DNA from: Candidatus Dojkabacteria bacterium
GTDB lineage: Bacteria > Patescibacteriota > Dojkabacteria > JAOAGR01
DNA: 60,616 nucleotides
Assembly (NCBI GenBank): GCA_026415655.1
Contig: JAOAGR010000001.1
Coordinates: forward strand, 1 to 60,616
Direction of reading: 5' to 3'
Under the pieces are notes generated by a model. It searched no databases, was not told where the DNA came from, and was given only the letters and a program-made list of their open reading frames with translations. The translations under genes and the position numbers were made by a program. This document shows, one piece after another, positions 8,818 through 52,816 of this stretch. Numbering within the stretch: position 1 is the stretch's first letter; every line of letters begins with the position of its first letter.

Positions 8818-11800
8818 ATGAATAACAAACTAATAACTAATTTCTTTGAACTTTATAATCAACTAAATAATGAACAGAAAAAGGCTGTAGATATGATTGA
8901 TGGACCTGTTATGATATTGGCCGGTCCTGGTACTGGTAAGACTCAAGTTTTAGCGCTAAGAATAGTTAATATCCTGAGGCAAACAGATGTAGAACCAAAT
9001 GATATCTTGTGCCTTACATTCCAAGATGCTTCTGTACAAGCAATGCGTAATCGGTTGATACGTTTTTTAGGAAATGATGCATACCGAATCAACATACATA
9101 CTTTTCATTCCTTTTGTAATGATGTAATACGTACATATCCAGATATTTTTAATTTCAATCTAAATGTAAGTACTATCTCTGATGTGGATAAGTTGGATAT
9201 TTTCAGGGATATAATTTTAAATAATAAGCTTGATCAACTACAATTTACTAACGATATTTTAGGTTATTTTTCTTCGTTAGTTCGTACAATATCTAATCTT
9301 AAAAAAGAATATATAACACCAGCAAAATTAAAAGAAATAATTCAGATATGGGCGCAAGGTGATCAGGATGTTGAACTGCGCAAGTTAGAACGGATGAACC
9401 AATTGGTTATTTTCTATGAAGAATATCTAAGAATAATGAAAGAAAGGAGTTTAATAGATTTCGATGATATGATCTATTATGTTACTGAGGAATTTACGAA
9501 AAACGATGAATTAGTACGTATTTATCAAGAAAATTTTTTATACACACTTGTCGATGAGTTTCAGGATACAAATAATGCCCAACTTGAAGTAATAAAACAT
9601 GTTGCAAATTACGAAGGTCTAAATTCTAATATATTTGTTGTTGGTGATGACGATCAGACTATCTTTAGATTTCAAGGCGCGTCTCTGAGTAACTTTTCAT
9701 CATTTTTGGAAATATTCCCTGATACAGAAATTATTGTTTTGAAAACTAATTATCGTTCAGGACAACAGATAATTGATGTCTCTGAAAATGTAATAAAAAA
9801 TAATGAACCATTTCGATTAGTTAATAATGATTTCTTAAAATCACGAAATTTAGATAAAAATTTTGTTTCAGGTAGAGGTTTAGATTCGAGAGTATCGGTT
9901 CATGAATTTAACAATGCTCTACATGAAGACTATTTTATAGCTAGTTCTATCAAGTCGCTTATAGATTCGGGTGTTGATCCAAATGAAATTGCGATAATTA
10001 CACGTAATAATAGACAAATATCTAATATTACAGGGTTTTTAGATGCTTTTAGGATAAAATATAAAATTAAAAAATCTAATAATTTGTTGGATGATAACTT
10101 TATTCTTGATATTATTACTATTTTCAAAGCAATAAATGATCCCAAACTTTTGTTTGATGATAGATTTATGTGGGACTTTTGCAATGTAAAATTCTGGGAT
10201 TTAAATATATATGATCTTCTTGCACAGATGCACAAATCGCGTGAAAGTAATAAATCTTTCTATGAACTCATCAAAAATAGCAATGATATTTTATATATTA
10301 AATTTAAAGGCGTTTTGGATGAAATTGTTAATTTATCAAAGAAGATTTCAGAATTTTCGGTTGAAAATATTTTTATTAAAATGATTAATAAACTAGGTAT
10401 ATTGGAATATCTAGGGAAAATTGATGATTCTCATTTGTATCTACATAAAATTGGTATTTTTTATCAATATATACAATCAAGACAGAAATTTTATCAGACT
10501 TATTTTGGAAACAAATATAGCTATATATTGCAAAAATTAATATCTGATCTGGATAACATGCAAAAGCGTGAAGTTATAATACCTATTGATATATCTGATG
10601 TGGAGCAGATGGATGGGATAAACGTTATTACAGCTCATTCATCAAAAGGTCTCGAATTTGAATATGTTTTTCTCTATCAGTGTATCGAAAATAACTGGGA
10701 GAAGGTCCAAGGTAGGGTAGATCCATTTAAATCACCGTTGTTTAATAATTTAATACCATCAGAACTTAACGAAAAAGAATATGACGAAAGAAGGCTTTTC
10801 TATGTGGCCTGTACTAGAGCTAAGAATGAATTAATTATTACATTTGCGAATAAGTATCCTGCATCAAGTAGTGGTGAGCTTGATTGGAAGGAAAAAAACG
10901 TTAGTAAATATGTGCTTGAAACAAATATTGAAAAATTTATTAGACATGATGAACTGATAGATCAAGATGAAAAAATAAATCAGATATTGTTATCAGACAT
11001 AGATGATGTAGTATTTGATGATAATACTAAACAGTATTTATCGAATATCATTCAATCAAATTTTACTTTATCGTTTACTGGGCTCAAGAAATATTCAGAT
11101 TACTGTAAATATAAGTTTTTATTGGAAAATATATTCAAAGTACCTACGCCTACTAGTGCGGAGTTACTGATAGGTACTTTTGTTCATGAGGGAGTAGAGA
11201 ATATCATTAAATATGGAGTTAACAATGAAAATACGCTAGATAATTTGATAAAAAAAATATTAGAAAAGGCAGAACAAGAGTATCACTCAAGCGATTTTAT
11301 TTTTGAGGTTTCTTTAGACAAGATAAAAGATAAAATTAGTAAAAGTATAAAAGCTTATTTTGAATATTATCAAAATAATTTCTCCCTAAGGGTATATTCT
11401 ATTGAAACTAATATCAAAGCATGGTTTGAAAATATTCCAATTAACGGCAGGGTAGATATGATAGGTTTTGAGCAGGGAGCTTATGTTATTTCTGATTTCA
11501 AAACTATTTCAAAAATTCCTTCGATAGGTGATTTTTTAGGTATAAATAAAACATCACAAAATCAGCATTTACAGCAGTTACTTTTTTATAAATTATTGAT
11601 TGAAAAGTGTAGTTATCAAAATATAAAGTTGTTAAAAAATAAAATAAAATCACTTCGTATTGAGTATATTGATACTACAGATTACAGAGTAATTCCTTTT
11701 GAGATCCCGGCATTTGGTATCTATGAATATCGTAAAAGAGTTAATTCTAAAGAAACTTCCGAGTTTGACCTAGATCAGGTATACGAAGAGTTAAAAAATT

Positions 11801-11904
11801 CTATAAAAGATGTTTACAATTCGATTGTAGCATTAGATTTTAGAAAAACTGATGATTTGTCAAAATGTGAAAAATGCCCATTTAGAAAACATTGTCGTAG
11901 GTGA
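8818..11904 (+). CDS. UvrD/PcrA-family SF1 helicase fused to C-terminal PD-(D/E)XK nuclease
   Basis: AGPGTGKT, LVDEFQDTN, VGDDDQTIFRFQGA, NYRS, TAHSSKGLEF, ERRLFYVACTRAK; GRVD..ISDFKT, QLLFY, CEKCPFRKHC. ATG 8818 chosen over TTG 8767. Confidence 0.93.
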   Translation: MNNKLITNFFELYNQLNNEQKKAVDMIDGPVMILAGPGTGKTQVLALRIVNILRQTDVEPNDILCLTFQDASVQAMRNRLIRFLGNDAYRINIHTFHSFCNDVIRTYPDIFNFNLNVSTISDVDKLDIFRDIILNNKLDQLQFTNDILGYFSSLVRTISNLKKEYITPAKLKEIIQIWAQGDQDVELRKLERMNQLVIFYEEYLRIMKERSLIDFDDMIYYVTEEFTKNDELVRIYQENFLYTLVDEFQDTNNAQLEVIKHVANYEGLNSNIFVVGDDDQTIFRFQGASLSNFSSFLEIFPDTEIIVLKTNYRSGQQIIDVSENVIKNNEPFRLVNNDFLKSRNLDKNFVSGRGLDSRVSVHEFNNALHEDYFIASSIKSLIDSGVDPNEIAIITRNNRQISNITGFLDAFRIKYKIKKSNNLLDDNFILDIITIFKAINDPKLLFDDRFMWDFCNVKFWDLNIYDLLAQMHKSRESNKSFYELIKNSNDILYIKFKGVLDEIVNLSKKISEFSVENIFIKMINKLGILEYLGKIDDSHLYLHKIGIFYQYIQSRQKFYQTYFGNKYSYILQKLISDLDNMQKREVIIPIDISDVEQMDGINVITAHSSKGLEFEYVFLYQCIENNWEKVQGRVDPFKSPLFNNLIPSELNEKEYDERRLFYVACTRAKNELIITFANKYPASSSGELDWKEKNVSKYVLETNIEKFIRHDELIDQDEKINQILLSDIDDVVFDDNTKQYLSNIIQSNFTLSFTGLKKYSDYCKYKFLLENIFKVPTPTSAELLIGTFVHEGVENIIKYGVNNENTLDNLIKKILEKAEQEYHSSDFIFEVSLDKIKDKISKSIKAYFEYYQNNFSLRVYSIETNIKAWFENIPINGRVDMIGFEQGAYVISDFKTISKIPSIGDFLGINKTSQNQHLQQLLFYKLLIEKCSYQNIKLLKNKIKSLRIEYIDTTDYRVIPFEIPAFGIYEYRKRVNSKETSEFDLDQVYEELKNSIKDVYNSIVALDFRKTDDLSKCEKCPFRKHCRR

Positions 11905-17178: not shown

Positions 17179-18384
17179 TTAGTAGTTTAATATTTCTAGC
17201 AAAAATCGTGTAATAGATGCAGGTGTTACATCATCATACCCGGATAATAAATTTGTCTGATCTATTATTCCCTCTAAATCTTTTGGTAATAGATAATTTA
17301 CTTTTGGTGCACGATTGAATGGTAGCTCTTTTGTCCATGGGTATTCGATAAGTGCAGTTTTGATCTCTGGTAGGTACGATCCCCCACCACATAAATAGAA
17401 TTGAGATGGAAACCCATTAGTAAGTGTTAAAAATTCTTCCAATCCAATAGCTACTTGTGCGGCCCAGATAGGTGTATCCTTTAAAATGCTATTTCTTACT
17501 TCTGAAATTCTGATTTCTGTTAATTCGCTATTTGAATATTTAATCTTAAAATCTTCGGCTTCAGGTATGGATATTCTTAGATCATTAGAAATTCTTTTTG
17601 TAAATACACGACCGCCAAAAGCAAGCATTTGTGTACCGAGCACTATTCCGTTTTTGACTAAAGCTAGATCAGTAGTGCCACCACCAATATCAATAATAAT
17701 TCCCGAGAATTCCTCATTTTTTGAACCTTTGATTGATCTAGCTATAGCAAAAGGTTGGGAGACTATACCCAAAAGAGGTAGATTTATGTGATTAGTTATT
17801 GATTTGAGATAATTTACGTGTACAATAGGGGCAAACGTAAAATAAAATTTTATAGTTACGTTAGTACCTGTCATCCCGATAGGATCTTCTACTCTAAAAT
17901 TATCTATTCTGCTGTCAATGATTATTACATTGACAAGTTCTATATGAGAAATTTCACCCGTAGTATCACCTATATGGCCAAAAATGAGATTTTGAGCTTC
18001 TTTGTAAGCTTCTTCTGTAATTAATTCTTGGACTTTTATAATTTCGTCACGGGTAATTTGAGAATTTGGCTTTTTGCGGGTATATTTTGCTTCTACTGTA
18101 ATCCCTTTTACTAATTCACCAGCTATTCCCATTATTACTCCATCAAACTCTTTTGCATCAAATTTTAGATCCATTAATGCCTCTTCAATAGTTTCTATAA
18201 CTCTTCTAATGCTAGTGATAGTTCCATTTTTCATCGCTACAGAATGTTGTTTTTTCTTCAAATATTTTTCTATTACTACATTATTATCTTCTACAGCAAA
18301 AAACACTATTTTCAAAAACTCCGTACCGATATCTAAAGTTATATATTTGTTATTTGTATTCTTTTTTGTCTTTGTAAAAATCAT
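17179..18384 (-). CDS. ftsA: FtsA-like actin-fold ATPase
   Basis: LDIGTEFLK, DNFRVEDPIGMTG, IDIGGGTTD, FGGRVFT, AEDFK, LCGGGSYL. Confidence 0.88.
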   Translation of the reverse strand: MIFTKTKKNTNNKYITLDIGTEFLKIVFFAVEDNNVVIEKYLKKKQHSVAMKNGTITSIRRVIETIEEALMDLKFDAKEFDGVIMGIAGELVKGITVEAKYTRKKPNSQITRDEIIKVQELITEEAYKEAQNLIFGHIGDTTGEISHIELVNVIIIDSRIDNFRVEDPIGMTGTNVTIKFYFTFAPIVHVNYLKSITNHINLPLLGIVSQPFAIARSIKGSKNEEFSGIIIDIGGGTTDLALVKNGIVLGTQMLAFGGRVFTKRISNDLRISIPEAEDFKIKYSNSELTEIRISEVRNSILKDTPIWAAQVAIGLEEFLTLTNGFPSQFYLCGGGSYLPEIKTALIEYPWTKELPFNRAPKVNYLLPKDLEGIIDQTNLLSGYDDVTPASITRFLLEILNY

Positions 18385-18413
18385 GGATCTGATATTATTC
18401 TATCATAGCAAAT

Positions 18414-18791
18414 TTATTGGTTAGATGATTGTTTCCTTTTATATTCTCTAATAATTTTGTCTATTAAAAACTTTAACCAGGCATCAGTAGAATTTACATC
18501 TGCATTATAATTATTTTGCAGAATTTTCTTTACTTGTGATGGAGATGGAGTAGGACCTGTGGAAATCATTTTTTTAATTACTTCAATTATTTTTGATACT
18601 ACATCCGTTTGTTGAGTAGTTTGCTGAGGTGATTGAATAGGTTGGAATGTGGTTACTTGAGATTGATTTACCTGAAGATTCGATGATATTACATTGGGGA
18701 GTACAGAACCTCTTTCGATGTCTAAGACTCGTTTTTCATTTTGTGATACTAGATTCTCGGGGTTTGTGGGATATATTCTGTTGCCTTCCAT
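18414..18791 (-). CDS. Hypothetical protein
   Basis: 125-aa ORF tightly packed between smpB and ftsA. Confidence 0.6.
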   Translation of the reverse strand: MEGNRIYPTNPENLVSQNEKRVLDIERGSVLPNVISSNLQVNQSQVTTFQPIQSPQQTTQQTDVVSKIIEVIKKMISTGPTPSPSQVKKILQNNYNADVNSTDAWLKFLIDKIIREYKRKQSSNQ

Positions 18792-45228: not shown

Positions 45229-46587
45229 ATGTTTAGATCAATAAACCCTTACACTGAAAAAGTAATATACGAAAATCCAGAAATTGCAGACGAAGAGTTA
45301 GAAAAAAGATTAGATTTAGCCTTTAGTGCATTTTTAAAATGGAGAAAGATTACATTAAATGAACGGAAAAATTTTATTGCAAAACTAATAGAAATACTTA
45401 CGACTTATAGATCGAATCTTGCTCACCTAATTACTTCAGAAATGGGAAAAACTATTAAGGAATCTGAATCAGAAGTTGATAAATGTGCAAAGTTAATACG
45501 ATACTATACTGACAACATAGATAGATATATTGCTGATGAGTTTATAGATGAGGGTAAGAAAATAATTTACGAACCTTTAGGTCCAATTTTTGCTATCATG
45601 CCGTGGAATTTTCCTTTTTGGCAAGTTTTTAGATTCGTTGTACCGAATTTATTGGCTGGAAATACTGTTGTTTTAAAGCATGCTTCTAATGTCCAAGAAT
45701 CAGCAAAAGTAATTGAATTTATATTTGATAATATTGGATTTGGATCTGGATTACTAATTAATTTACCTATTTCTTCAGCAAGGGTAGAAAGGGTTATTTC
45801 TGATCAAAGAATTTTTGGCGTTACTCTGACTGGTAGTGAGAACGCTGGTAGATCCGTTGCTAGACTTGCAGGTGAATATATCAAAAAAGTAGTTTTAGAA
45901 TTAGGAGGTAATGATCCTTTTATTGTATTTGAAGATGTTGATTTAGATTTTGTCTTAGATAATGCAGCGAAAGCAAGACTCAGAAATGCTGGACAGGCTT
46001 GTAATTCGGCTAAGAGATTTTTAATACATCAGAAAATTTTTAATCAGTTCGTTGATGGGTTGCGAGCAAGGTTTGCATCCGTCAAAGTGGGAGATCCTCT
46101 AGATCGAAATACTGATATGGGACCAGTGGTTTCTGAAAGTGCTAGAGAACAAATTCTTGAACAGATAGAAATTGCCAAAAATAATGGAGCCGAGGTAACT
46201 TGGGGGGGGAGAAAATTGCACAATCAAGGTTATTTTGTTGAACCTACAATTGTGAGTAATGTGTCACAAAACAATCCAGTATTGGATCAAGAGATTTTTG
46301 GTCCTGTTGCATTGGTAATGTCGTTTGGGGATCATGCAGGGGCTATTGAATTGGCAAATAAGACAGCTTTTGGATTGAATTCTTCAGTGTGGACAAATAA
46401 TAAAGAGTATCAAGAGTATGCAATCAAAAATATACAAGCGGGTAGTGTTTTCATAAATCAAATAGCAACTTCTGATGTGATGATGCCTTTTGGCGGAATC
46501 AAAAAATCTGGCTTTGGTAGAGAAATGGGCGAGTCAGGAGTTAGAGAATTCTTAAACATAAAATCTGTTGTTTATAACAATGGCTAG
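45229..46587 (+). CDS. NAD(P)-dependent aldehyde dehydrogenase (succinate-semialdehyde dehydrogenase-like)
   Basis: IMPWNFPFWQ, LKHAS, LTGS, LELGGNDP, NAGQAC, EIFGP, PFGGIKKSGFGRE. Confidence 0.93.
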   Translation: MFRSINPYTEKVIYENPEIADEELEKRLDLAFSAFLKWRKITLNERKNFIAKLIEILTTYRSNLAHLITSEMGKTIKESESEVDKCAKLIRYYTDNIDRYIADEFIDEGKKIIYEPLGPIFAIMPWNFPFWQVFRFVVPNLLAGNTVVLKHASNVQESAKVIEFIFDNIGFGSGLLINLPISSARVERVISDQRIFGVTLTGSENAGRSVARLAGEYIKKVVLELGGNDPFIVFEDVDLDFVLDNAAKARLRNAGQACNSAKRFLIHQKIFNQFVDGLRARFASVKVGDPLDRNTDMGPVVSESAREQILEQIEIAKNNGAEVTWGGRKLHNQGYFVEPTIVSNVSQNNPVLDQEIFGPVALVMSFGDHAGAIELANKTAFGLNSSVWTNNKEYQEYAIKNIQAGSVFINQIATSDVMMPFGGIKKSGFGREMGESGVREFLNIKSVVYNNG

Positions 46588-47341
46588 AAAAGTATTGATA
46601 ACTGGTGCATCTAGTGGGATTGGTTACGAGCTATGTCATGTTTTTGCAGAAAATGGATTTGATGTAGTTGGTGTTGCGCGTAATAGAGGAATACTTGAAA
46701 TGATGAATAATGCTTGGTGTTCCTTGTATAAAACTAAATTTGAATTTTTAGTATGTGATCTTTCAGATAGTGGTGATCTATTAAATTTATTTGACTATCT
46801 AAAAAAAGAAACCGTAGATGTGCTCATAAACAATGCAGGTATTGGACTTTATGGTAAGTTTAACTCGACTGATATTCAAAGGAATCTGGACATTATTGAT
46901 GTAAATATGATTGCGTTAACAAAGCTTACTTATCATTTCCTTAAAAATTCCGAAGTAAAACACAAAACTGTGATAAATATATCCTCAATAGCAGGTTTTT
47001 ATCCTGGAGTGGGTAGCTCAGTATATTTTGCATCTAAATCTTATGTAAATAGTTTTTCTCAAGCTGTTGCTATAGAAAATGAAGGGGTCCATCGTGTAAT
47101 ATGCATATGTCCTGGTGATACTGCAACTAATTTTTTTGAGAATGCGGGTGGAAATGTTCATCAAAATGCTGCTGATCCTAGGGGAGTGGCAAAATTGGTG
47201 TACGATTCTTATGCCAAAAATGCATCACTGAAAATTGTTGGCATCAAGAATAAAATATTGTTTAGTTTATTGAAGATTTTACCAGCATTCTTGGTAAGAA
47301 AATATTCAAAGTATAGGCATATTTTTAAGAAAATTTGGTAG
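46580..47341 (+). CDS. Short-chain dehydrogenase/reductase (paralog of 43442..44197)
   Basis: TGASSGIG, LINNAGIG, YFASK. Confidence 0.92.
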   Translation: MARKVLITGASSGIGYELCHVFAENGFDVVGVARNRGILEMMNNAWCSLYKTKFEFLVCDLSDSGDLLNLFDYLKKETVDVLINNAGIGLYGKFNSTDIQRNLDIIDVNMIALTKLTYHFLKNSEVKHKTVINISSIAGFYPGVGSSVYFASKSYVNSFSQAVAIENEGVHRVICICPGDTATNFFENAGGNVHQNAADPRGVAKLVYDSYAKNASLKIVGIKNKILFSLLKILPAFLVRKYSKYRHIFKKIW

Positions 47342-47425
47342 AGTATTATTCTTTCTTTGCATGAAATGTTTACAGATGTACAGATGTGGTGTTATAATTA
47401 TTGGATTGATACACTTTTAGATCAT

Positions 47426-47836
47426 ATGGAGGTTTCAGATACACGACCGACAAGAAATAATTATATCACAACGTTTGCCAGGTTAGCATATGGATTTGGG
47501 AAGTCTATTGTATACCCTGTAGGACGGAGACTAGAATTGTTTGTAGATCAATGTATATATGGATTATCACCATTGCTGATCCTGGCTAATGCTAACAATC
47601 CATCAATATCATTAATTTTCTTATCTATATTAACCTATGCCTTAGACTATTTCGATAGTAGAACCGGAAATAACAGAAATAGGATCTCTGATATATTTAT
47701 TTCCAGTGTTGGGTTATTTACGAAAATTCTTGCTTCACATGAAGTTATTACACAATTCGTTCTTAGGTATAACTGGAATATCACTGATGTATTATTGAGG
47801 GCTGGATCCAATATTTTATCTACTTTTATTCCCTAA
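47426..47836 (+). CDS. Orphan hydrophobic protein (MEVSDTRPTRNNY...), possibly part of the cassette array
   Basis: ATG 47426 preceded by extended -10 TGTTATAAT (47390-47398). Confidence 0.55.
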   Translation: MEVSDTRPTRNNYITTFARLAYGFGKSIVYPVGRRLELFVDQCIYGLSPLLILANANNPSISLIFLSILTYALDYFDSRTGNNRNRISDIFISSVGLFTKILASHEVITQFVLRYNWNITDVLLRAGSNILSTFIP

Positions 47837-47972
47837 TCCACAGACTACATGGAACTTTGTAGAACAATATATAATGTTGCCTAATAAAAATAGATCAGTC
47901 TATACATATTCCATCAATACATAATGGACAGCAGTGTACTTGGTATTTTCTTCATTTGTCATGTACCAATTC

Positions 47973-48015
47973 TATTTTAACCTTCCATCTCTAAAACAGA
48001 TCCTTTATGAGGACC
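47973..48015. repeat. Degenerate third copy of the att-like core
   Basis: 27 of 43 ungapped matches to 49289-49331 by eye; followed at a similar offset by GGGATGCTTTTTATT versus GGAATGCTCATTTATT. Confidence 0.55.
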
Positions 48016-48277
48016 TTAAATTTAGCATGAAAATAGATAAAAACAGTATATGCATGGGATGCTTTTTATTCCATATTTTGCGGCTAATATTCGAAATATT
48101 ATTATCAAAACAATAATTTGTATAAGGGACATTGTATTGATTAATTGTGGCTCTCTTGTTATAGCTAGTTGTGTAATCATGCTGTGAACTATAGACGGTA
48201 ACGGTAGGCTATCAACAGAACAACACTGTAAACTATATTCATTTTAGACTCAATACACACAATGGACAAGACAAGAC

Positions 48278-48770
48278 TTGAATAAAGTTTCGGCAAACAT
48301 TTATCGCTCATTATTGGTATTTCGTCCCTTTCCGGCCATTCTAAGAGGTGTGGTGTTGAATCAGTTTATTTCATCATTTATTGGTTTGGTAGGGAGTGGT
48401 GGTATATATGATCGTTTATTGGTTAATTTTTGTTATATCATTGAAGGGATGGTCACATTCATTGGTGTATGGGGTTTTCCAAAGACTGAAGGTACTCAAA
48501 AATTATGATATACTGCTATGGATAAAAAACTCTCAACTTATGTTGATCGTACTGAACAAACAGACATCGGTTCGCAAGTTTAAGACATTCGTCGGGGTTA
48601 ATGAATATCGTGATCCCATATCAGGAAAAGCTCATGGTTTTGTTGGCATTTCTAATCTGAATTAATTCCCTTACCGAATTCGCATTAGTATGCCGTTATC
48701 GATGAAGAAACAACTAGGGTTAGGCATTTTGATTACAGTAAGTTCAAAAGTTAGTCGTCATTTGAGATGA
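48278..48770 (+). pseudogene. Disrupted paralog of 49521..50126
   Basis: SGGIY/SGDIY, KTEGTQKL/KTEGCQKI, QTDIGSQV*/QTNIGSQVY, RISMPLS..LGLG..HLR*/RISMPLS..LGIG..FLR*; internal stops; 5' end not resolved. Confidence 0.85.
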
Positions 48771-49259
48771 AAGTATCCTATTTGTTCTATATCTTAAGGG
48801 ATTTTCTTAACTTGTATTCAAGGTTTCTGTATTGATTTGTGTGGTAAAGAAATATGATGTACATGTTTGTATAACCAAAGGGAAATGAGATGTTATCGTC
48901 AATATGTGGTCAACCTTATACGGTATTACCTATAGTTCTCGCTTGTTAATCGAAGATGATTTTGTTTTATAACATAGGCTATTTTCCGTTATTTTAAAAT
49001 ATATGGACCGTTATCAATATCATTAATCGGTTGAAGTTGAAAATTTATTTGTAGCATTTTCAAGCTCTATAATTGGTTTCAGATGAATGACATTACTGGT
49101 AGGCAGTGAATATCCAATATTTAGTTGGGATGATTTAATGTAGCAATAAATGATAAAATGAACTTTATCTCTTGATAGTTTAATTCCACGTTTGTTTTTA
49201 TACCTACGAAAAACATTCAATGAAATATGTACCTTATACAGAGAATTAGAAAAATCTGC

Positions 49260-49332
49260 TTTGGTCTGCTTATGCTGTATTCTACTGATATGTCAACTCC
49301 CCATCTCAATCGCAAACTCCTCATCAGTACCA
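49260..49332. repeat. Direct repeat (att-like), copy 1: duplicate of the 3' end and downstream flank of gene 51205..51834
   Basis: 69/73 identical to 51172-51244; 49293-49332 is an exact 40-bp match to 51205-51244. Confidence 0.97.
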
Positions 49333-49475
49333 CTGAATGCTTATTAGGGCAATACACCCGGATAATAAGGTCAGGAATGCTCATTTATTGTATAGAGACA
49401 TTTATGAAAGAGGTCTCGCTCCAACCACAAGATATGTAATCTAATTAGAAAGTTTTATCTTAAACCTACATTATA

Positions 49476-49504
49476 TTGCTTTTTATAACAGTTTACTTTA
49501 TAAT
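49476..49504 (+). promoter_or_regulatory. Sigma70-type promoter TTGCTT-17 bp-TATAAT
   Basis: -35 at 49476-49481, -10 at 49499-49504, ATG at 49521. Confidence 0.6.
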
Positions 49505-49520
49505 TATATGCACGAACAAT

Positions 49521-50126
49521 ATGAATAGGTTTATATTTATAGAAGGTGCTGTGCAACTTTCAAAATATGCTTGGGAAAAGTTTGCGAAAAATCCTGAAGC
49601 GAGAAAGTATGCCATTAAAAATGCATCCAATGGGATTGCCACTATGGCTCTCCACATTTTCAGTGTGGTAGGCAATCCACTGATTGCTAATCATCTGAAG
49701 GGACCGATAGATACTTTGTTCCCTACGATGCTCGGCTGGATACCTAGTGGTGATATCTATAGTTGTGTGGCTTATATACCATATTCTGCCTCAGCGTTAT
49801 TGACTGCTGTTGGTTTGTATGACTTTTGGAAGACTGAAGGCTGTCAGAAGATAGTGAGATCGTTAAATGGGACATTTTCATCATTGATCAATCACGCTAG
49901 GCAGACGAATATTGGTTCGCAAGTTTACGATGCTTGGTTAGGAGTTAGTGGACGTTGTTATACTGTGTTGGAGCCTGTTTGCAATTTTGTAGGAAATTTA
50001 ACAAATTCTGTTATAGGTAAAATTCCGGATCGGTGTAGAATCAGTATGCCACTATCACCGAATCGGAGACTCGGAATCGGAGCAGCTAACGCACTCTGTT
50101 CTTTAATGGGCCATTTTTTAAGATGA
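49521..50126 (+). CDS. Orphan cassette protein ORF1 (amphipathic/hydrophobic, about 201 aa)
   Basis: Intact ORF with own promoter; amino-acid-level conservation with the upstream pseudogene supports coding status. Confidence 0.8.
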   Translation: MNRFIFIEGAVQLSKYAWEKFAKNPEARKYAIKNASNGIATMALHIFSVVGNPLIANHLKGPIDTLFPTMLGWIPSGDIYSCVAYIPYSASALLTAVGLYDFWKTEGCQKIVRSLNGTFSSLINHARQTNIGSQVYDAWLGVSGRCYTVLEPVCNFVGNLTNSVIGKIPDRCRISMPLSPNRRLGIGAANALCSLMGHFLR

Positions 50127-50268
50127 AGATATTCAATTTGTTATATATGTCTGGAGATTTTTTATGATTCAGTGTTTTTGTATTGCTTCGTGTAAACGAG
50201 TACAATATCAGGTGACTGTCGATATGTAGTCAACTTGTAGATATATAGAGTCTGGTTTGTTTAGTTAG

Positions 50269-50296
50269 TTGACTATTACCGGTCTTGTGCTATAAT
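50269..50296 (+). promoter_or_regulatory. Sigma70-type promoter TTGACT-16 bp-TATAAT with extended -10 (TGcTATAAT)
   Basis: Near-consensus hexamers 28 nt upstream of ATG 50325. Confidence 0.7.
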
Positions 50297-50324
50297 ATGA
50301 ATAGCTCTAATTAATTAAAACTAT

Positions 50325-50673
50325 ATGGAAAATCCAGAAAAAAAATTATGATTCAATTCAGCGGCTTGGACGCGATATTGCTCCATCGATTTTTACGACG
50401 CTGTTATTTGGTGTTTCCTCATATTTATCCGGAAATGAACCTACTATTTTGCCATTTTTTGAAAAGGCTGTTGTAAGTTTGGGGGTAATATTATTTTTAA
50501 GGGCGTGTGCGTTTATCGCAAGTAGAGAAAAACCAGAATCTTTTTTTAGGGGTGCGTCGTCCTTAGGATTATCATTACATAGTTTTGTTATGCTTGCAGG
50601 AGCTTTTGTAACAGGTGTGTCTGGTGTTAAGGACAAGTTATTACCTCAGCTCTTACCTCCAAATTTACCATAG
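50325..50673 (+). pseudogene. Orphan membrane protein ORF2, frameshifted in an A8 run
   Basis: ATG GAA AAT CCA G-A8 (50338-50345) reaches TGA; A7 gives an open frame MENPEKNYDSIQRLGRD... continuous with ORF 50449..50673. Confidence 0.7.
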
Positions 50674-51171
50674 CATATCTTGGTAGTGTTTTTTGTTCGA
50701 ATATATTTTTTGAGTTCTATGCGATTTACTGGAGTTTCATCTACATGGTGGGATGATTTATGCCTATTTATTCCTGATTTTGTTTATATTGATGTATCCT
50801 GATTACTTCAAGAAAGGGAAGCTGAGCTGATTTAGGAGTTTATGCTACTTACCGTCAAATTTAGATGCGTTTGTACATAGTATCCCTGGCTATAGTTTAA
50901 CTGTGTTGATCATGCATAAGTTATGTTGAGTTAGAATCATTTATTTGTATATTTCGATCTCCCTTTTTTCAAAATTGATTTTCCAACTTAGGGAGGTAGA
51001 TGATTTGTTTCGGGAAATAGGTGGGATGATTTCATGTAACAATAAAAGAAATAAAATAAACTTCTTCTCTTGATATTCTAATTCTCAATTTGTTTTTTTA
51101 CATCTACGCAAGGCACCTATTAGTATATGTATCCTATCCATAAAATTATAAAATAAAAAGTAATTAATTGT

Positions 51172-51244
51172 TTTGGTCTGTTTATGCTGTAGTCTATTGA
51201 TATCTCAACTCCCCATCTCAATCGCAAACTCCTCATCAGTACCA
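51172..51244. repeat. Direct repeat (att-like), copy 2, overlapping the last 12 codons and stop of the HTH gene
   Basis: Minus strand encodes GTDEEFAIEMGS*; matches 49260-49332. Confidence 0.97.
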
Positions 51245-51834
51245 ACAAGTGTGCATTTTGGTAGGACAAGTAAGGAATAAAGTATTGGGTGATTATTACC
51301 TTTTTCTAGTTCAAACTCAGGTTTTGACCAAATTTTGACATATATATCACGACCTTCTCTTGTACGGATGAGAGCTTGGATTTCTTTCAATTTTATCACA
51401 TTTACGCCGTCACCGATGATTACAACATCAGGATTATCTGGATAAGAAGTTTCTCGATTTATAAATGTATGTGTGAGAAATATATATTTGATTTGACCTA
51501 GTTCCTTGTTTTGATAAGTATTCCAAAGTTCAATTGCTAATGGTGAAGTTTTCATTACTAAAGAACGTAATTCATTATAAAAAATAAAAGATGGATTAAG
51601 TATAAATTGTCTTTTTATACCGTCTTTTTTAATAATTAAGAGGTCTATTTTTACAAGTGACATCAGTTCCCTTCGGACAGCATTTATTTGTTCATCAATC
51701 TCGCGACCTACCTGTCGCATATGTCTATACGTATTCGGTTCAGAGAAAAACAGGTATAGTATCTTTCTTCTTACTCTTGAAGTAATAATCAGTTCTAAAA
51801 TGCTATTTGGATTTAACTTTTGACTTAATTTCAT
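51205..51834 (-). CDS. Winged-HTH regulator fused to degenerate nucleotidyltransferase-like domain
   Basis: SRVRRKILYLF, HMRQVGREIDEQINAVRREL, NPSFIFYNELRSLV, PDVVIIGD, WSKPEF. Confidence 0.8.
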   Translation of the reverse strand: MKLSQKLNPNSILELIITSRVRRKILYLFFSEPNTYRHMRQVGREIDEQINAVRRELMSLVKIDLLIIKKDGIKRQFILNPSFIFYNELRSLVMKTSPLAIELWNTYQNKELGQIKYIFLTHTFINRETSYPDNPDVVIIGDGVNVIKLKEIQALIRTREGRDIYVKIWSKPEFELEKGNNHPILYSLLVLPKCTLVGTDEEFAIEMGS

Positions 51835-51901
51835 GGAAATAGTATACAAAATTTAATCGGTTTTGAAAAGTAAAGATATAAAATTTTGATATCATATCAT
51901 T

Positions 51902-52816
51902 ATGTTTAGTCTTATAAACAAAGATTTTCAAACACTACGAAAGTTTTTCACCCGTTGTCCCAGATGTAATACAATATCATCCGAGTGGGAGATACGTAGA
52001 GTAAAATACAATCTTAATCTTTATTTTACGAAATTGACCATCTTTACACTTATCGAAATTGCTTGTGCATCGTGTAAGTATTCTATAAAGATGCATGAGA
52101 AACTTGTGCGACGTATCTTCGCAGGTGGATTTGATGGGAGTAAGTTAATCAGTCAGGCTGGCACATATTATAAATTTGGATTTTGGCATATTTTTTTGGC
52201 TGAGTCTTGGAAAATCTGGTTGTTTGCTTTTCTGATTATTAGTGTTTTTTTGTTTTTTGATTTTTTGAAATATGATGTGGTGTATGGTGAGCCAATTTTT
52301 ATAAATTCACAAGGAGATATTAATAGTGAAATAGTTGGAAAGTATGTTTCAATTGACGGAAAAATAGAATTAGGACAGGTCTATACAGTTGATAAATATG
52401 AGGTAACATCAGATAATAAAACGAGCAATTTAGAAGAATCATTTATTTTTGTACCGCTATATGATAAGGCCGATCAAACACTTTATGTCCTTTTTGCTGG
52501 CGGAAAAGATGTAAAAGACAAGATTATCGATGATGGTATTGTTAATAACTATAATTTAGAAATAAAGCTAAGTGGAATTGTAAAAAATATTGATAAAACA
52601 GATATACCACAAGAGATTAGTGAATATATAAATAAAGATCTGGTACAAAAATATAAATTAAACCCGACAAAGATTATTTTAGATCAAAGATACATTATTG
52701 ATGTGTTTGATCTTTTGCTGAAATATGTACCATTTTATCTTGTAAATTTGTTCTTGTTTATTATGTCATCTTATATAGATTCCCGTATAAATAAACTAAA
52801 ATACACAATAAAATAG
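51902..52816 (+). CDS. Zinc-ribbon-containing membrane protein
   Basis: CPRC...CASC, TM, extracellular domain, C-terminal TM. Confidence 0.7.
   Translation: MFSLINKDFQTLRKFFTRCPRCNTISSEWEIRRVKYNLNLYFTKLTIFTLIEIACASCKYSIKMHEKLVRRIFAGGFDGSKLISQAGTYYKFGFWHIFLAESWKIWLFAFLIISVFLFFDFLKYDVVYGEPIFINSQGDINSEIVGKYVSIDGKIELGQVYTVDKYEVTSDNKTSNLEESFIFVPLYDKADQTLYVLFAGGKDVKDKIIDDGIVNNYNLEIKLSGIVKNIDKTDIPQEISEYINKDLVQKYKLNPTKIILDQRYIIDVFDLLLKYVPFYLVNLFLFIMSSYIDSRINKLKYTIK

Follow-up and report, generated by a model that had tools for sequence, protein, structure and literature searches.

How did two diverged tandem units, whose genes have no homologues in the databases searched, come to lie at the 3′ end of a conserved bacterial gene with no recombinase gene on the same contig? 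The array that raises this question occupies positions 47973-51244 of contig JAOAGR010000001.1 (C1) from a Candidatus Dojkabacteria bacterium (GenBank assembly GCA_026415655.1). The window analyzed is this whole contig of 60,616 nucleotides, and the genome to which it belongs is a metagenome bin of 881,805 bp in 14 contigs (92% complete, 31% G+C). The gene beside the array encodes a putative helix-turn-helix (HTH) protein, and copies of its last 40 bp, referred to here as cores, bound the units. The answer that we tentatively favor, at what we judge to be somewhat under an even chance, is serial gain by recombination inside this 40-bp block: incoming DNA would have carried a gene-end copy of its own and been joined to the chromosome by host recombination. 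The gene-end copies and the sequences adjoining them are listed below.

51205-51244, minus strand: near core, the 3′ end of the HTH gene
49293-49332, minus strand: middle core, identical to the final 40 bp of the HTH gene
49333-49400, minus strand: decayed HTH coding fragment adjoining the middle core, 31/68 identical to the gene and containing stops
47977-48016, minus strand: far core, probably a decayed HTH gene-end copy, 24/40 identical in its best register
50925-51204, minus strand: arm 2, beside the near core
49030-49292, minus strand: arm 1, beside the middle core

The original prediction, made from the sequence of the contig, reported an exact duplication of the gene's last 40 bp, and this duplication is real: the middle core matches the last 13 codons and TGA stop of the HTH gene at 40 of 40 positions, and when up to 3 mismatches were allowed these two copies were the only ones in the 881,805-bp genome, with none on the other strand. 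The array and its anatomy are demonstrated. Immediately beyond the middle core, the match to the HTH gene continues in decayed form, and the similarity of this fragment (46%) was reached by none of 399 off-register controls. The far core is less obvious. Its score of 24/40 ties for the best non-self score and is found at 6 sites among 1.76 million positions, and when the comparison was extended by 68 gene bases it reached 51/108, a value attained at 9 positions, the two true copies included. It thus ranks among the top 7 non-self positions of 1.76 million (p ~0.002 for a 440-bp slot on the right strand). The degenerate copy that had been placed at 47973-48015 is therefore probably genuine, although its best register is 47977-48016.

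The age of the middle junction can be judged from the way identity changes across it. Along the gene strand, identity is 46% in the fragment, 40/40 in the core, 36/40 in the next 40 bp, about 74% in the arm and 58% in ORF1, the open reading frame (ORF) common to both units. The arms themselves (about 270-280 bp) are unmistakably related, being 73.8% identical over 263 columns (local z = 37; 0 of 300 shuffles reach the score). Had the core diverged at the arm rate, 40 identical positions would be expected with a probability of only 5e-6. In addition, 4 of the 40 core positions distinguish the genome from its sister genome of the same genus (G001), and at each of these the middle core has the base of its own genome; the adjoining fragment favors neither lineage clearly (7 versus 5 of 17 sites). 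A perfect core with the resident bases at every informative site, set among sequences only 46, 74 and 58% identical, means that the middle junction is far younger than the divergence of the units. Sequence was therefore exchanged at the core long after the units had diverged, which excludes a simple old duplication; the strongly non-uniform identity bears out the prediction that the units had diverged while the core had not. A young junction between two old units is thus demonstrated.

The sister genome supplies the empty site. The genes that frame the comparison are as follows.

46568-47341, plus strand: short-chain dehydrogenase (SDR) gene
47426-47836, plus strand: ORF159-type orphan gene, outside the units, the ancestral neighbor of the HTH gene end
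51205-51849, minus strand: HTH gene, conserved and single-copy, whose last 40 bp are the near core

The array thus sits between two convergent conserved genes. In G001, where the HTH protein is 89% identical and the flanks are 81-84% identical at the DNA level, the locus consists of the SDR gene, a stop-interrupted ORF159 pseudogene, a 127-bp spacer and the HTH gene, with no units and a single core copy (36/40). The distance between the SDR and HTH gene ends is accordingly 1.6 kb in G001 and 3.9 kb in the present genome. G001 is an empty site, and the arrangement is not shared by all relatives. Moreover, the far core lies 140 bp from the ORF159 stop, close to the 127 bp that separate the HTH stop from the ORF159 homologue in G001. 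Neither the arms nor the spacer below the far core is colinearly similar to the 127-bp spacer, the lone match (z = 3.4) being out of register. Unit DNA is absent from all 40 relatives searched (0/40), the gene end of G001 itself aside, and no second copy of the HTH end was found at the 21 relatives' loci examined, so this gene end is not a recurrent landing site.

The two units, about 1.3 kb and 1.9 kb in size, differ greatly in their state of preservation. Their features are listed here, unit 1 being the one farther from the HTH gene.

48356-48767, plus strand: ORF1 pseudogene of unit 1 (residues 64-202), disrupted by 2 in-frame stops as well as a frameshift (tblastn E 5e-12)
49518-50126, plus strand: ORF1 of unit 2, an intact orphan of 202 aa from ATG or 216 aa from a TTG at 49476
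50325-50673, plus strand: ORF2 of unit 2, about 115 codons interrupted by a frameshift within an A8 run (50338-50345)
51022-51032, plus strand: 11-mer motif TGGGATGATTT, also at 49126 and 50749

The ORF1 remnant of unit 1 is in two parts (48356-48586 and 48669-48767) and is followed by a block of about 65 bp that is common to both units (48774-48842 versus 50130-50193, z = 8). The units had been described as colinear throughout. This holds for ORF1 residues 64-202, the block after ORF1 and the arms, but not for the leaders (z = -0.1) or the first third of ORF1 (z = 0.1), where similarity between the units is undetectable, nor for ORF2, which has no counterpart in unit 1. A search of 5.8 billion clusters and 1.84 billion representatives returned only ORF1 itself, which also has no protein family and no credible atlas match. 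ORF2, with two to three hydrophobic segments, has no homologues in the protein collections searched. The A8 run separates its ATG (50325) from the long frame, which may reflect sequencing error, phase variation or a true frameshift. Neither unit ORF has a match in Pfam, PHROG or NCBIfam, although no separate search for transposase families was made. A promoter-like site precedes ORF2 (50269-50296), and the notion that the unit genes are equipped with promoters has single good matches of this kind in its favor, but such sites are no more numerous overall (20) than in shuffles (24 +/- 4.5); terminator-like sites are likewise not in excess (2 versus 2.2).

Both arms contain open frames of unexpected length. 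On the minus strand, arm 1 contains a frame (49026-49292) that is open for 89 codons and in frame with the copied TGA, a length reached by none of 5000 shuffles. The corresponding frame of arm 2 (50940-51204, minus strand) runs for 39 codons to a TGA and then for 47 more, which 13 of 5000 shuffles match if the TGA is read through. The reading of TGA as sense was examined for the arm frames only, and long intact ORFs elsewhere in the genome under translation table 11 argue that the standard code is used. The homologous frame shifts partway along the arms, the ratio of nonsynonymous to synonymous divergence (dN/dS) between them is 1.0, and the open frame has neither a homologue in the protein collections searched nor a signal of selection. 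In line with the original prediction of an integrase-less array, it lacks a recombinase, a tRNA gene, an Rfam family and any excess of hairpins: a tRNA search of the window found none, positions 47000-52000 had no Rfam match at E up to 1, and the arms plus core folded no better than shuffles on either strand (z -0.1 to +1.1).

The HTH gene itself is conserved in its class, with a homologue in 40 of 41 sampled genomes, the present one counted. Its family matches are all below threshold (EarA, E 0.05; NTP_transf_2 and the winged-helix family HVO_A0114, each with 3 of 20 aligned members), and neither sequence nor profile searches found a relative in the PDB. No relatives of the protein were found in metagenome contigs, a collection that may omit near-identical records. 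From these matches, its product is probably a winged-helix plus nucleotidyltransferase-like protein. ORF159, the other gene next to the array, was considered as a paralogue of ORF1 or ORF2 and rejected, as it resembles neither.

Similar footprints were found at other genes of the two sister genomes. The first lies at the opposite end of the same intergenic region. In G001 (contig C4, L026), a duplication of the final 64 SDR codons (9286-9499 and 10105-10298) flanks a 0.6-kb insert that bears a small acidic ORF on the opposite strand and is missing from the present genome. The repeat consists of a 77-bp block with 1 mismatch followed by 39 in-frame codons with dN 0.19 and dS 0.89, a difference indicating that both versions diverged as working gene ends. 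Judging from this codon pattern, a functional version of the target gene end came in with the inserted DNA. In the present genome, contig C7 (L048) contains a 7.9-kb island between 411-bp direct repeats (95% identical, 10318-10726 and 18254-18663) that duplicate the start of an orphan gene. Its genes encode a DUF559 endonuclease-like protein, an N6/N4 methylase, a RhuM/Fic protein and a type III Res helicase; the site in G001 lacks the island, and homologues of the island genes lie on another G001 contig. The island, with its type III restriction-modification cargo, is a textbook case of insertion with long target duplication. Finally, on contig C6 (L047) an 80-85-bp direct repeat (96% identical, 9884-9963 and 11809-11888) flanks a 1.8-kb insert holding a 270-aa orphan ORF. 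A 628-aa gene has its first 37 bp and its upstream region within the repeat, and from its N-terminus we take it to be alanyl-tRNA synthetase; the length of the region differs in G001, though no clean empty site is found there. Four unrelated duplicated targets in two sister genomes favor a general mechanism over one site-specific enzyme.

Further repeats were seen elsewhere in the genome. On contig C12, 34-38-bp repeats at 66-bp spacing (59787-60949) resemble an array of clustered regularly interspaced short palindromic repeats (CRISPR), with a lone copy about 790 bp upstream. At contig ends, 345-bp stretches are shared between C13 (31809-32153) and C14 (17069-17413) and between C14 (1-342) and C8 (1-342), with identities of 97% and 87%, and these probably represent a repeat that broke the assembly.

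The account that we favor, serial gain within the 40-bp block, would proceed as follows. A first block carrying ORF1, perhaps ORF2, and an arm would have arrived at the HTH gene end, leaving the displaced copy of the gene end beside the old downstream spacer, at 47977. Later, a related block would have arrived with its own decayed copy of the gene end, comprising fragment 49333-49400, the core, arm 2, ORF2 and ORF1, and recombined with the chromosome within the 40-bp identical block. The older block would thus have been pushed away from the HTH gene, where it could decay. The joining may have been carried out by host homologous recombination acting on DNA from a related population, through a Campbell-type single crossover or its equivalent, with no dedicated integrase, although another enzyme could also have effected the exchange. 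It is these two separate arrivals and the nature of the joining enzyme that we infer. Several observations are in line with such a history. The empty site in G001 and the matching distances from ORF159 to the far core and to the G001 gene end agree with displacement of the original gene end. The far unit is the broken one, as had been foreseen in placing the newest unit beside the target, and the middle junction is far younger than the units that it joins. A comparable duplication of the SDR gene end lies at the opposite end of the same intergenic region in G001, and the present genome has further integrase-less insertions between unrelated long repeats, on C7 and C6. The same footprint without mobility genes has also been described in the literature (in the excerpts of PMC2853133 on which we draw).

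Several points weigh against serial gain. ORF1, ORF2 and the arm frame have no homologues in the databases searched and unit DNA is confined to this genome among the relatives, so there is no outside pool of related units and the two arrivals follow from the pattern of identity alone. The absence of a duplicated HTH end from the 21 relatives' loci counts in the same direction. A block of 40 bp is about as short as homologous recombination tolerates, and gene conversion could also have renewed the core. In addition, it is the arm of the supposedly newer unit, arm 2, whose frame is broken, while the older arm 1 remains open. Public sequencing runs offer a lead only, on the side of serial gain. 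Fifteen runs from eight studies contain part of the stretch as judged by the share of its words, the best at 0.99. Other runs have shares of 0.72, 0.59 (four runs) and 0.29, equal to the 0.714, 0.584 and 0.298 expected for sequences without unit 1, without unit 2 and without both, but even divergence or patchy assembly could yield these values too, and shares of 0.17 and below are uninformative.

The gene conversion just mentioned is central to the main alternative, which we regard as possible but doubtful, in which one insertion with target duplication was amplified in place by unequal crossing-over and a recent, short conversion event renewed the middle core. Three repeats and two colinear units are the expected product of such amplification, and units without relatives elsewhere fit it too. 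Amplification of repeat-flanked units is documented and has been proposed for restriction-modification units (PMC2853133, in the parts consulted). The 90% identity in the 40 bp beside the core, falling further out, resembles a conversion tract, and the far core, having no flanking homology, would have escaped conversion. However, the conversion tract could span no more than about 40-80 bp and would have to stop sharply at 49332/49333, and identity along the arm is not a simple gradient, since the block at 49119-49176 is 82% identical with poorer stretches on either side. Selection on both copies in the G001 SDR case is also unlike decay in place. An assembly artifact, in which two co-existing strains with one unit each were joined by the assembler at the 40-bp repeat, is very improbable. 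The genome is indeed a metagenome bin in 14 contigs, and other runs contain only part of the words of the stretch. Yet the junction of the core with the fragment and leader (49332/49333) must exist in some molecule and is not expected in a one-unit allele, typical reads are longer than 40 bp, and the best run, which may be the source sample, holds nearly all the words.

The original prediction had called for a dedicated site-specific recombinase supplied in trans, and in its fuller form this reading holds that the units are minimal mobile cassettes with an attP made of fragment, core and arm, inserted and excised by a tyrosine or serine recombinase from a helper, as in cis-mobilizable elements (CIMEs) or satellites. 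The identity block is sharply bounded and has a decayed gene fragment beside it, as in elements that bear the end of their target gene; the arm is better conserved than ORF1 without a codon pattern (dN/dS 1.0); and the motif TGGGATGATTT is nearly confined to the array, which contains 3 of the 4 copies in the genome, and could mark protein binding sites. Accretion beside a target gene is known for such elements (PMC5704250; bioRxiv 10.1101/2020.12.28.424599; both in the excerpts consulted). The genome does encode 3 recombinases, two tyrosine and one serine, but their genes lie on other contigs beside tRNA-His, tRNA-Arg and tRNA-Ser and none is near a core copy, of which the genome has only the two, although at 92% completeness a helper integrase could be unassembled. 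The plus strand of the core contains only 2 G in 40 bases, so that no dyad or self-complementarity is possible. Nor was the core pattern found in the metagenome and viral contigs searched, collections that may omit near-identical records, and the four duplicated targets in the sister genomes have no common sequence. With no positive sign of a dedicated enzyme and no relatives of the unit genes, we consider this reading unlikely. More improbable again is an integron-like system of gene capture in bacteria of the Candidate Phyla Radiation (CPR), with integrase-less cassettes of 1.3-1.9 kb, a fragment-core-arm att site, a gene end in place of attI/attC, a recombinase in trans, and single-unit and empty forms in hot-spring populations.

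Serial gain by recombination at a duplicated gene end would have a wider bearing. Classical mobile elements are scarce in the ultra-small CPR bacteria, whose genomes nevertheless differ by many small orphan genes. The same enzyme-free footprint at the array, the SDR gene end of G001 and the C7 and C6 insertions suggests that these organisms regularly acquire genes by recombination at duplicated gene ends. To our knowledge, the mechanism behind the long-target-duplication footprint is unsolved in any organism. The value of the two-unit array is its sharp, young junction between two old units, which makes it convenient for testing the mechanism with population reads.

How the array compares with known systems can now be stated, and the claim that it fits no known element class proves too strong, as two described categories account for its anatomy. 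The first is insertion with long target duplication (Nobusato et al. 2000, cited by Furuta, Abe and Kobayashi 2010, PMC2853133). In the excerpts of that paper used here, as in the array, a block of less than 20 kb with no mobility gene in or beside it is flanked by a direct repeat of more than 30 bp derived from the target, of which a related genome, here G001, has one copy; the repeats overlap gene 3′ ends, and later amplification through them is proposed. The type III restriction-modification island on C7 shows that the same genome also holds a textbook case. The differences are that restriction-modification genes are the criterion of Furuta 2010, whereas the cargo here consists of orphan ORFs, and that the array has two diverged tandem units. 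A repeat made of a perfect block joined to a diverged arm also suggests that a copy of the target came in with the new DNA and was not generated at insertion.

The tandem accretion of CIMEs related to ICESt1 and ICESt3 (PMC5704250, in the parts consulted) is the other category, in that integrase-less units have copies of a gene end, resembling attL and attR, at their borders, and the newer unit lies beside the intact 3′ end of a protein gene while older ones decay. In contrast to these elements, the array has no parent integrative and conjugative or integrative and mobilizable element, no cognate integrase, no homology to any element and no evidence of excision, and its units are only 1.3-1.9 kb long. 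In the excerpts of bioRxiv 10.1101/2020.12.28.424599 on Tycheposon islands of Prochlorococcus, older elements are likewise driven inward by repeated integration at one site, which leaves behind incomplete copies of the target and degenerate remains; the tycheposons, however, encode tyrosine or serine integrases and insert at tRNA genes, and the array has neither feature.

Two other candidates were ruled out: an integron cassette array, there being no attC-like folding excess and no recombinase on the contig, and an IMEX (an Xer element at dif), since the repeat lies within a coding region and is not self-complementary, the dif consensus itself not having been searched. A further parallel is offered by the displaced orphan cassettes of rhs and cdiA genes, in which a new 3′ module (C-terminal toxin plus immunity) recombines within a conserved block of the gene end and its predecessor is shifted downstream with a fragment of the conserved block in front of it, as in the array. 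The HTH gene, however, is not a toxin gene, and its duplicated block ends at the stop codon so that the protein is unchanged. The array is not an integron, an Xer-dependent element or a tRNA island, and it establishes no new class of mobile element; it is a scar left by gene gain without an integrase, of a type described before.

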